A stretch of DNA of 53,319 bases, from contig JAZRFC010000060.1 in assembly GCA_045661145.1 (NCBI GenBank), positions 1 to 53,319 on the forward strand, in the 5' to 3' direction. Position numbers and translations under genes: made by a program. Under the pieces are notes generated by a model. The model had not been told where the DNA came from. It saw nothing but the letters and a program-made list of their open reading frames with translations, and made no database searches. Below are positions 8,738 through 11,377 of the stretch, piece after piece (position 1 is the stretch's first letter; every line of letters starts with the position of its first letter). This DNA is from Clostridia bacterium (GTDB taxonomy: Bacteria; Bacillota; Clostridia; UMGS1883).

Positions 8738-9580
8738 ATGGGATTTTTAAAAAGACTTATGTTTGGTTCTGTTGGAGAAAAATTATTAGATAAAATTATT
8801 GAAAACAGAAATATGGCCTCAAGGATAAAAGCACTTGAAGAAAGAGCCGCTGCATATATTAAAAGCGGGGAAATTGTGTATGAAAAAGCATATAATGACG
8901 CCTTGAAAACCATAAGTGAGACTGAAAACACCATAAGTAACCATATGAAATTCAGAGGAGAAGTAGCTCTCAAATTAGGTGAAAAAGTTGAGCAACGATT
9001 GCTTAAATTGGAAATAAAACGATCTTGTGTGACAGTTGCCGAAATAAAAAGAAAGATTAAAATTATCATAAACGAAAATAGGCATAGTGTTGTTAGACCA
9101 TTTAATACTTTTGATGTTTTTAATATACTTTTATCAATACAAGACTACAAACATGCGGAAGAACAGCTTGATGAAGCAATTAAATACTATGAAAACATGC
9201 GAATGGAAGCGGAAAAACTTAATTTGTTTATTGATAAATTAAAAGCAATATGTAAATATCTTGAGTGTGAAAAGAAAGAAATAGAGATTCTACTCAAAAA
9301 GATTGATAATTTATTTATAGAAATTGAAGGAACTATAAACAAAAAGACAATCAGGATATTTGCATTAAAAGAAAAAAGAACAATGAAGGAACTAAAAATT
9401 ATAATTAGACAAATTATATTGATTATAAAGAATAATTTTATAGAAGAGAATCTTGATGTTAATAAGAAATTTGTAGAGCAGCTAGAACTGATTAAACAAA
9501 TCAATCAAAATTTGCCCGATGCACCTGTATTGAGAGAAAATGGATATTCAATTAAACTTATAAATGGAAAGGTTCATTAA
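8738..9580 (+). CDS. Hypothetical alpha-helical/coiled-coil protein
   Basis: 280 aa, K/E/I/L-rich heptad-like stretches, amphipathic N-terminus MGFLKRLMFG; GGGGAAG RBS-like sequence upstream. Confidence 0.8.
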   Translation: MGFLKRLMFGSVGEKLLDKIIENRNMASRIKALEERAAAYIKSGEIVYEKAYNDALKTISETENTISNHMKFRGEVALKLGEKVEQRLLKLEIKRSCVTVAEIKRKIKIIINENRHSVVRPFNTFDVFNILLSIQDYKHAEEQLDEAIKYYENMRMEAEKLNLFIDKLKAICKYLECEKKEIEILLKKIDNLFIEIEGTINKKTIRIFALKEKRTMKELKIIIRQIILIIKNNFIEENLDVNKKFVEQLELIKQINQNLPDAPVLRENGYSIKLINGKVH

Positions 9581-9582
9581 AG

Positions 9583-9876
9583 ATGGAAATTGAAGCAATA
9601 GCTTTCGTTAGAGAATATTTTTCATTATTAGAAGAATACGAAGTGAAGAAAACAGAAAACAAAAGAATTGTTGAAAAATTAAAAATTCAAACAAAAGTAA
9701 TAATAAAGCATAGAGAACTATTTAACAAATATTTTGATACAAATATTCAAGATAGGGAGAGGTTTTATTCCAGGATAAATGAAACGATTGATTTTGCAAT
9801 CAGTAAAGCCGACACACAACTAATCGAAATATTAAGCGAAACAGTAAAACAAGTAAAAAGACAGCAATTATTATAG
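9583..9876 (+). CDS. Small alpha-helical hypothetical protein (paralog A)
   Basis: 97 aa, 2 nt after the previous stop; aligns without gaps to the next ORF. Confidence 0.78.
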   Translation: MEIEAIAFVREYFSLLEEYEVKKTENKRIVEKLKIQTKVIIKHRELFNKYFDTNIQDRERFYSRINETIDFAISKADTQLIEILSETVKQVKRQQLL

Positions 9877-9889
9877 ATGGAGGTTGCTT

Positions 9890-10300
9890 ATGAAATTATT
9901 TAAGAAATATGATAATGGTGAGACTGCTACATCAACAAACATGGAAGAAATTATAATTGAAAAATCAATAGAGGTAATAAAAGAAACAACGAGATGCTTT
10001 ACAGAATATTCTGAATGCAGAGAAAGGGAAAAAAGTGAGAGGAAAAGAATATCAGCACAATTGCGTGCCTACTTAAAAAAAGTGGATGCAATTAGAGAAG
10101 TTGAATTGGAAAAGATAAAGTTTACGCATGAAGAGAGAATGAGTTTGCTCAATGCGGCGGATAAAGCTTTAGAAATAGCAAAACAAAACGGTGATGTTAG
10201 GATTGTTAAAATGACATTTGAGTTTATAAATGAGACGTTAAATAAGGTTGGTTATGCAGATAAAGTATCTGTAAATGGGAGTTTATTAATAGAAGATTAA
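9890..10300 (+). CDS. Small alpha-helical hypothetical protein (paralog B)
   Basis: GGAGG RBS 6 nt before ATG 9890; shares the (T/S)E.KRI..L, RE, (D/E)R and A....D pattern with paralog A. Confidence 0.8.
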   Translation: MKLFKKYDNGETATSTNMEEIIIEKSIEVIKETTRCFTEYSECREREKSERKRISAQLRAYLKKVDAIREVELEKIKFTHEERMSLLNAADKALEIAKQNGDVRIVKMTFEFINETLNKVGYADKVSVNGSLLIED

Positions 10301-10357
10301 TTATGTTAACATAAGAAAAACATATGAAGTGCCTAATAATTGCGAAGGTGTGAAAAT

Positions 10358-11377
10358 ATGAATAAAAAGATTATAATAGGTATATGTACATTGTTTATAT
10401 TGGTCATTTTAGGAATATTGTTGTTTTTTTATTACTACTTGCCACTTGATACATATAATATGGCAAAATCTAATGAAAGTGAATTTGATATCTATTGTGC
10501 CATTGATCAATATGGGGATATTTTGGGATTTAAAGATAGCAGAGAAAATATCGAAAGTCTGGCAAAATATATTTTTGATGAGAATTATCATATACAATTT
10601 AATTTGACTGCAAGAATAAACGATTACGGAATACCGAAGATAAAATATATGCCTGAAGAAAACTCTCAAATTATAGAACGAGTGGAAATGATAGAAAATG
10701 TTAAGGATGTAGCTTATTTACCATTTTGTGATATGTGGGGGAATTTTGAGGATGCCTTTTTTGCTCTTCTTGGAAATGGTAGTGTGATACGCGTACAGGA
10801 AGAGTTGGATTCAAAAGAGGAGTATGCCGAAAGAGAATTTATAGTTAAAGATTTAGAAAGAGATTTCTTTGATGCAGAATGGGCGAACATATCTAAAATT
10901 TCAAACTCTTGTTCCCATATAGTAGGTCTCAGATATGATGGAACGGTAGTGGCGGCAGGGAATAACAGTACAGGGCAGTGTGACACGGAGCTATGGAGTG
11001 ATATAATAGATGTAGTAGCTGGAGAAGGATTTACTGTTGGATTAAAGTCAGATGGAAAAGTTGTTATTGCTATGTATGACAGGAAAAGTTATATTAGAAA
11101 AACACCTGACGAAAGTACAATTGTAAGGGAAGAGTATGAAGGAGCAAAAGAGTTTGAGGAAATTCATACATGGGATAATATAATAAAATTATCAGCTGAT
11201 TTAAATCATATTGTAGGTTTAACTGAAGATGGAAAAGTTGTTGCAACCGGACAAAATAGGTATGGACAGTTAAACGTTGATAATTGGACAAATATTGTTG
11301 ATATTCGTACAACAGAAATGACTACATTTGCCATGGACAATAATGAAAATATTTATTTTACTGAACGATTGAAGTAA
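10358..11377 (+). CDS. Membrane-anchored RCC1/BLIP-II-like beta-propeller repeat protein
   Basis: N-terminal TM IIIGICTLFILVILGILLFFYYYL; repeats HIVGLRYDGTVVAAGNNSTGQC, FTVGLKSDGKVV, HIVGLTEDGKVVATGQNRYGQL. Confidence 0.8.
   Translation: MNKKIIIGICTLFILVILGILLFFYYYLPLDTYNMAKSNESEFDIYCAIDQYGDILGFKDSRENIESLAKYIFDENYHIQFNLTARINDYGIPKIKYMPEENSQIIERVEMIENVKDVAYLPFCDMWGNFEDAFFALLGNGSVIRVQEELDSKEEYAEREFIVKDLERDFFDAEWANISKISNSCSHIVGLRYDGTVVAAGNNSTGQCDTELWSDIIDVVAGEGFTVGLKSDGKVVIAMYDRKSYIRKTPDESTIVREEYEGAKEFEEIHTWDNIIKLSADLNHIVGLTEDGKVVATGQNRYGQLNVDNWTNIVDIRTTEMTTFAMDNNENIYFTERLK

Follow-up and report, generated by a model that had tools for sequence, protein, structure and literature searches.

Small helical paralogs encoded beside a larger helical protein bring to mind the WXG100 and LXG-Lap sets and the tripartite Hbl and Nhe toxins. 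The locus described here resembles these and several other described systems in architecture. It lies on a 53,319-nt contig of a Clostridia bacterium (JAZRFC010000060.1 of assembly GCA_045661145.1), the whole of which we refer to as the window. Four plus-strand open reading frames follow one another within 8738-11377, and we call them A (8738-9580, 280 amino acids, aa), B (9583-9876, 97 aa), C (9890-10300, 136 aa counted from ATG) and D (10358-11377, 339 aa). An initial annotation, made from the letters of the window, had read them as one undescribed system composed of a coiled-coil protein, two paralogous helical proteins and a membrane-anchored RCC1-like propeller, and its coordinates and its spacers of 2, 13 and 57 nt were confirmed. 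Our comparison of related loci shows the predicted functional unit to be A-B-C (8738-10300), not four genes, with a gene upstream of A (U) and a gene downstream of C (E) as optional members. It also shows that A-B-C is, as far as its sequences tell, a co-inherited accessory cassette of new protein families that is under purifying selection and has two to three paralogous small subunits.

The likenesses between this cassette and described systems are likenesses of architecture only, and in each case at least one defining test fails. Type VIIb secretion system (T7SSb) sets, that is, WXG100 proteins or LXG toxins with Lap1/Lap2, likewise place small helical paralogs of ~100-160 aa in tandem with a larger helical protein. 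The cassette, however, lacks a WXG or LXG signature, has neither toxin domain nor immunity gene, and stands near no secretion machinery; it opens with the large protein, the reverse of their order, and it also occurs in Negativicutes. The tripartite alpha-pore-forming toxins (Hbl, Nhe and Ahl/Smh, with the ClyA fold) similarly have several helical components per operon, but components of the Hbl/Nhe type measure ~350-450 aa, leave the cell by the Sec route and have a hydrophobic head or beta-tongue, whereas A, B and C have no signal peptide, no hydrophobic stretch and no match to the Pfam HBL model. With PspA, Vipp1 (IM30) and ESCRT-III proteins, A shares an N-terminal MG-hydrophobic-F motif, a succession of two long and then shorter helices, and a size of ~220-300 aa. 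It differs from them in having no profile similarity beyond nine residues and in the long disordered loop at the tip of its hairpin, and its partners are soluble helical paralogs rather than the membrane proteins PspB and PspC. The low-G+C abortive infection (Abi) cassettes of Firmicutes, such as the lactococcal Abi systems, and PADLOC candidate systems resemble the cassette in being small, low in G+C, sporadic and variable in location, with some defence neighbours; yet the cassette has no sequence match to PADLOC v2 models, and no plasmid was seen to carry it. D resembles bacterial RCC1-repeat surface proteins in its matches to RCC1_2 and to the RCC1-like domain model, but it has ~3-5 recognisable blades in ~170 aa as opposed to seven. 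We rate the cassette as outside the known kinds, with no component falling in any family tested.

The order A-B-C is kept in 17 distinct loci (the window and 16 others) wherever the contig covers it, and it holds down to 18-23% identity between loci. The A-B gap ranges from 0 to 27 nt and the B-C gap from -4 to 17 nt, and the three genes give correlated distance matrices (r = 0.93-0.95). Because the order is kept, the gaps are small and the distance matrices are correlated, the triad evolves as one block. The operon-like packing seen in the initial annotation is supported for A, B and C, with near-zero spacers kept across loci. That annotation had stated that its system would be refuted if homologs of the four genes never co-occurred; homologs of A, B and C do co-occur wherever the contig covers them, whereas homologs of D do not accompany them. 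Against orthologs that are 56-78% identical, dN/dS (the ratio of nonsynonymous to synonymous substitution rates) is 0.11-0.19 for A, B and C, with synonymous sites near saturation, and we therefore take the three genes to be expressed and constrained. The cassette is distributed patchily among gut and rumen Clostridia and Negativicutes, in agreement with the earlier impression that such proteins occur in variable loci of more than one lineage. Scans of genomes and metagenomes added a Butyricicoccus metagenome-assembled genome (MAG; L011 among the loci compared, which are given L numbers), a Selenomonadaceae MAG (L012) and five short contigs. No match to the cassette was obtained by tblastn in 50,697 phage records and 72,556 plasmids, and no relatives were found in IMG/VR by three pattern scans. 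The alignment of family A was too divergent for pattern scans.

Protein A is rare. Among 5.8 billion proteins it has only five close homologs (56-67% identical), which come from short metagenomic contigs carrying the same triad of 280, 97 and 136 aa. A profile search of 1.84 billion representatives retrieved 47 clusters (50% identity) at E <= 0.001; nearly all members are 264-307 aa long, and the six that are shorter are probably fragments. Conserved features of the family include the N-terminal MG[LFI]F[D], a YxxAY in helix 1, a DYxxA...EA..Y opening helix 2, and an INxxLPxxP with an invariant proline near the C-terminus. An AlphaFold2 (AF2) model of A built from 6 sequences was poor (predicted local distance difference test, pLDDT, 56). 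The model built from 45 sequences is all-helical, with pLDDT 75 and a predicted template modelling score of 0.62; its helices span residues 2-93, 134-201, 206-231 and 243-258, and a disordered loop (96-131) joins the two long ones. A hydrophobic-F-D-hydrophobic-F motif is present at the N-terminus in 20 of the 45 members and before helix 2 in 21 of the 45. The two halves of A align weakly with each other (hhalign 30%), and an internal duplication is thus weakly suggested. A has no hydrophobic segment (maximum 19-residue Kyte-Doolittle mean 0.89) and no match in Pfam, NCBIfam, PADLOC or PHROG, and it is unrelated to the B/C domain when compared with B and C. Scans of the 45 members against Pfam and PHROGs gave only scattered coiled-coil noise (tape-measure, DUF948, Golgin). 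Foldseek searches of the PDB with the A model gave no match at E < 0.1 and only generic coiled coils among the best 50 of the 201 structures matched at E <= 10. When the PDB was searched with profiles of A, B, C and the joint B/C/E domain, nothing came up other than coiled coils of viral fusion proteins and helical repeats designed de novo. In one metagenome assembly (L003, 440-1282) A has an in-frame stop after codon 176, beyond which the same frame continues; this is either a natural nonsense allele or an assembly error.

The initial annotation held the two small proteins to be paralogous, a relationship that turns out to be visible by deep profiles only. A pairwise BLASTP comparison of B with C gives an E-value of 0.06, in which paralogy is not visible, and profiles of four sequences reach an hhalign probability of 5%. 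With 12 sequences of B and 14 of C the probability rises to 98.7% (E 1.8e-16, 95 aligned columns), and the B and C hidden Markov models cross-match in every locus. By these profiles B and C are unambiguously true paralogs. Neither has a match in Pfam, NCBIfam, PADLOC or PHROG, and neither has a hydrophobic segment (maximum 19-residue Kyte-Doolittle mean 0.46 for B and 0.40 for C). Searching with a C profile brought in 14 proteins, among them a clade with members of ~160 aa (37-43% identity), and C carries the motif KETxRCFTEY..C[KR]E[HR]E[KE][TS]ERK. In six distinct loci (L008/L009, L010, L011, L013, L014/L015 and L021) C is followed by a further small protein, E, of 80-97 aa. Compared with C it reaches an hhalign probability of 94.8%, by which E is a third paralog, of the same predicted ~95-aa helical domain family as B and C. 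Pfam scans of 29 B/C/E members gave scattered noise only, and the PDB searches with the B, C and joint profiles returned nothing other than the designed repeats. The earlier description of the first three proteins as helical and devoid of enzymatic motifs therefore holds up: A is helical in the AF2 model, B and C are predicted to be so from their sequences and from profile matches to helical proteins, and the library scans of all three were without match.

A fifth gene, U (8359-8724, plus strand), had been missed by the initial annotation. It encodes a protein of about 121 aa, its start codon being uncertain (TTG at 8323 or ATG at 8359), and it ends 13 nt before the start of A in the same low-G+C islet. 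The protein does not look all-helical by eye, has no hydrophobic segment and has no family match in scans of Pfam, NCBIfam, PADLOC and PHROGs. It is 57% identical to the product of a 118-aa gene directly upstream of A in L004. Homologs of U are confined to the window and the L003-L006 group and are absent from L001, L002 and the distant loci; in L002 the position of U is taken by an IrrE/M48-like peptidase gene abutting A, and in L001 A is abutted by a gene for a different, 137-aa helical protein. Judged by this distribution, U is an accessory gene of the window and its nearest relatives, where it is co-conserved with A-B-C.

The last gene of the run behaves differently from the triad. As the initial annotation had proposed, D is predicted to be a single-pass membrane repeat protein: it has one transmembrane (TM) segment, a single N-terminal helix at aa 5-23, and it matches RCC1_2 in three stretches with 58.7 bits (cut-off 22), which is above the Pfam gathering score. 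Its match to the RCC1-like domain model, at 65.6 bits, is under the cut-off of 150. The scan together with a reading of the sequence places the recognisable blades in residues ~130-335, and the N-terminal ~150 extracytoplasmic residues match nothing. No homolog of D was found in the 16 other distinct triad loci. Its orthologs (89, 77, 76, 54, 54, 48% identity and onward) belong to a large Clostridia RCC1-repeat set of 230 hits, and its relatives in Clostridia, which number in the hundreds, carry TM, LysM or other wall-binding modules. The ortholog at 89% identity, in GCA_045636425.1 (L019), lies between DUF805 and acetyltransferase genes and is without the triad. Between window 10346-11377 and L019 9989-11020 the nucleotide identity is 93%, with unrelated flanks; the similarity begins 12 nt before the D start codon and stops exactly at the stop codon, and in L019, too, D forms a trough in G+C. 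These comparisons suggest a single-gene horizontal transfer or relocation of D. D looks like a passenger gene, probably acquired independently, which is adjacent to the conserved cassette and possibly co-transcribed with it but stands outside it. Since D is separable from the triad, the islet in the window is a mosaic in which U-A-B-C and D, if not further pieces, were acquired independently.

The composition of the islet sets it apart from its surroundings. The G+C content of U, A, B, C and D is 0.27-0.32 (U alone 0.27), and that of the cassette is 0.29, compared with 0.39 for the window and 0.38-0.43 for the flanking trmL, yitT, cysE and cysS. In most loci the cassette is likewise under the locus average in G+C, with drops like that of the window in L011 and L016. 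Insertion sites differ, and in the window, L011, L012 and L017 the cassette sits between housekeeping genes. A low-G+C islet at different chromosomal sites would fit a horizontally moving accessory module. No direct repeats flanking the islet and no tRNA gene in the window were found, and no integrase accompanies the cassette islet. A promoter-like site, TTGGTA-16-TATAAT, on the plus strand at 8206-8233 (10 of 12 matches in a consensus scan, a pattern match only) lies in the spacer after a glyoxalase gene, upstream of U, and is a possible start of a U-A-B-C(-D) transcript. Between the convergent D and yitT genes stands a perfect 15-bp hairpin flanked by runs of A and T (11399-11429), which is likely a bidirectional terminator closing the islet.

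We then considered the genomic contexts of the cassette. Neighbours related to defence or mobile elements were found in L001, L004, L008, L014, L016 and L021, and only housekeeping neighbours in the window, L011, L012 and L017; long contigs are too few for statistics. The expectation of some defence-gene neighbours was thus borne out in part of the loci, where they comprise restriction-modification (R-M), Cas9, kinase/NB-ARC, HipA and caspase-like genes. In the L004 group the cassette comes after type I R-M genes, a gene for a sigma-70-region-4-like protein and one for an IrrE/M48-like peptidase. In L004 itself (9043-10582) an IS110-family transposase gene is inserted into the short stretch that separates C from a conserved gene of 65 aa, and in L002 (1794-1804) this 65-aa gene stands directly after C. 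The cassette of L001 follows a HipA-like kinase gene. In L014 it is located ~7 kb downstream of Cas9; directly upstream of it is a gene for a Pkinase/NB-ARC/TPR protein of 1406 aa, with a kinase region that matches PD-T4-6/MkoA kinase models, and after the cassette come a metallo-beta-lactamase-fold gene (weak Apyc1-like match) and a large HSP70-like gene. This contig (L014, 1-20870; G+C 0.23) is a dense candidate defence island containing Cas9 and A-B-C-E, and it further holds genes for a 361-aa protein without known match, a 909-aa HSP70-like protein and a YqaJ exonuclease. In L021 (1768-3297) a 509-aa caspase-like protein (PADLOC caspase model, E 6e-10) is encoded ~900 nt after E, and in L020 (1395-2525) an unannotated 376-aa protein with several hydrophobic segments (multi-TM) is encoded 16 nt after C. 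AntA, DUF2779 and GIY-YIG genes precede the cassette in L008. In L016 a regulatory block that may be prophage-like has the cassette at its edge, next to an S24/helix-turn-helix (HTH) repressor-like gene. An XRE-type HTH gene adjoins the cassette in L009 and L012, and a 101-aa gene cut at the contig end in L010 matches the XRE gene of L009 by size and position only. In L012 (10695-12204), the Selenomonadaceae MAG, the cassette is just upstream of recA-recX, and in L017 (5181-6883) it is ~3 kb downstream of recA, after recA-recX-DUF805-guaA; the proximity to recA-recX in these two loci may be shared synteny and not a functional link. The surroundings in the window are ordinary Firmicute housekeeping genes, namely those for a TrmL-like methyltransferase (named by eye), a glyoxalase, YitT, CysE and CysS. 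The glyoxalase/bleomycin-resistance-fold gene (7795-8193, plus strand), just upstream of the islet, has a G+C of 0.34 and a third-position G+C of 0.25, and it may be part of the acquired region. Far from the islet, a lysine riboswitch (44370-44536, plus strand; Rfam RF00168, 112.5 bits) is located directly upstream of a 544-aa open reading frame (44558-46192).

What the cassette does can be proposed only tentatively. Our best guess, held with less than even confidence, is that A-B-C acts as a hetero-oligomeric helical complex in conflict with phages or mobile elements. From the near-zero spacers and the strict gene order one may suppose that the proteins are made in fixed proportions and join into a hetero-oligomeric complex, and the foreign composition, the varied sites and the repeated presence of R-M, CRISPR, kinase/NB-ARC, HipA, caspase-like and XRE neighbours suggest a role in conflict. 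In this view the complex of A, B and C, built with a fixed stoichiometry, would reside in the cytoplasm, possibly at the membrane periphery, and would serve as an abortive-infection or defence-type module against phages or mobile elements. A would provide the scaffold or effector, with the paralogous B/C(/E) subunits bound to it and restraining it; more speculatively, the two hydrophobic-F-D-hydrophobic-F motifs of A could be docking sites for the paralogs or membrane-contact elements. A fuller version of this proposal, which we consider doubtful, is that A-B-C(-E) is an undescribed prokaryotic conflict system of non-enzymatic helical proteins, in which the hairpin of A, as scaffold or effector with its two hydrophobic-F-D-hydrophobic-F motifs, would be held in check by paralogous three-helix subunits and released on phage infection onto the membrane or onto phage assembly. 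Several observations weigh against a conflict complex of this kind. No component matches any model of PADLOC-DB v2.0.0, a check that the initial annotation had itself put forward, and the only matches, to R-M subunits, are at chance level (E ~0.01-0.02, in coiled-coil stretches). No nuclease, NTPase, protease, TIR or pore-forming domain is present that could act as effector. Of the long contexts, about half (the window, L011, L012 and L017) are housekeeping only, and the loci that associate the cassette with defence islands are too few for statistics. At its N-terminus A has a hydrophobic patch of moderate hydrophobic moment rather than a strong amphipathic helix, the charge and isoelectric point of A are not conserved, and its internal-repeat signal is weak (hhalign 30%).

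That half of the long contexts are purely housekeeping and that no effector domain is present, together with the position near recA in two Negativicute-type loci, would also suit an accessory module outside conflict, for instance a niche-specific complex with a structural, regulatory or chaperone-like task, the defence neighbours then reflecting landing in variable regions. We regard this as rather unlikely: the very sparse and patchy occurrence (47 clusters in 1.84 billion representatives) and the foreign G+C argue against a physiological core role, and there is no positive evidence for any specific non-conflict function. The small size, tight coupling, sporadic distribution and low G+C of the cassette are also what one would see in a toxin-antitoxin (TA) or addiction module, or in a mobile-element maintenance function, in which one helical protein would inhibit growth and the others would neutralise it with no direct link to phage. 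HipA, RelB and XRE/HTH genes are among the neighbours, and the nonsense allele of A in L003 fits a costly gene. This is nevertheless an unlikely explanation, as U, A, B, C and D match no known toxin or antitoxin family, three to four components are unusual for a TA module, and the cassette was not found on the plasmid, phage or IMG/VR contigs searched. A highly divergent membrane-stress or remodelling module of the PspA/IM30/ESCRT-III type, in which A would polymerise on damaged membrane through an alpha-0-like N-terminal helix with B/C(/E) as regulators or adaptors, we consider quite improbable. The N-terminal MG[LFI]F[D]... of family A does recall MGIFSRF of PspA and MGLFDRL of Vipp1, the model helices run long-long-short-short, broadly as alpha-1 to alpha-5 of ESCRT-III, and the best Foldseek match of A in BFVD is a phage PspA/IM30 protein (probability 0.85, although with a non-significant E of 0.045). 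That match, however, has a template modelling score of only 0.29-0.34 and a root-mean-square deviation of 39 Å. When the 45-sequence A profile was compared with PspA or with PspA plus Vipp1, hhalign aligned only the first nine residues, with a probability of 0.7-2.3% (the E. coli PspA query had been verified as identical to PDB 4WHE over residues 1-144); membership of A in the PspA family is therefore not supported, and what remains is a vague architectural likeness. Further, no PspA or Vipp1 structure is among the best 50 of the 201 PDB Foldseek matches, none of which reached E < 0.1; the Pfam PspA_IM30 model has no match to the window A at E <= 1 and does not figure in the 25 weak Pfam matches met most often across the 45 members. 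The hairpin tip of A carries a disordered loop of ~40 residues, which is not known from PspA. A search of the literature on PspA/ESCRT-III and anti-phage defence turned up nothing relevant to the A family.

The two remaining explanations had both been put forward in the initial annotation. In one, the four genes form a single system, and D with its membrane-anchored RCC1 propeller would serve the helical complex as extracytoplasmic sensor or as immunity protein. D does lie 57 nt after C on the same strand and in the same low-G+C stretch, with no terminator in between, and L020 has its different multi-TM protein gene in the corresponding place. This partnership is nonetheless very improbable and largely refuted, given that D is missing beside the triad in 16 of the 16 other loci, that its ortholog in L019 has no triad, a similarity confined to the D gene and a G+C trough of its own, and that D belongs to a large, ordinary RCC1-repeat group. 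In the other, the proteins are secreted, either as T7SS-type substrates with small helical partners or as a multi-component alpha-helical pore-forming toxin, and the resemblance of small helical paralogs beside a larger helical protein to WXG100/LXG-Lap sets and to tripartite Hbl/Nhe toxins is what speaks for it. We give this hardly any credence. The Pfam models for WXG100, LXG, Lap (DUF3130/DUF3958) and HBL have no match in the window proteins, the 29 B/C/E members or the 45 A members, and the inter-helix turn of B and C reads G-D/N instead of W-x-G. Signal peptides are lacking in A, B and C, as are hydrophobic segments of the kind that forms a toxin head, and a pore-former is not supported. 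No EssC/EsaA-type or other secretion genes were found nearby in any locus whose genes had been called and annotated with Pfam, a gene-by-gene annotation that did not extend to the remainder of the window. The cassette is also present in Selenomonadaceae, which are diderm Negativicutes and from which T7SSb is not known.

The reading of A-B-C as a helical complex in phage or mobile-element conflict stays our best guess, and the cassette is best described as a well-delimited, tractable candidate and not yet a discovery, its rarity limiting the reach of the finding. The result fixes the boundaries of the unit (A-B-C, with U or E optional) and drops a misleading RCC1 partner, and the alignments and the 17 loci render the cassette directly testable. 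If a defence or membrane-active role were true, its new families would amount to a scaffold of ~280 aa and a helical domain of ~95 aa in two to three paralogs, and the cassette, lacking any enzymatic or pore-forming domain, would belong to a class of systems to which homology-based defence finders are blind by their very design.

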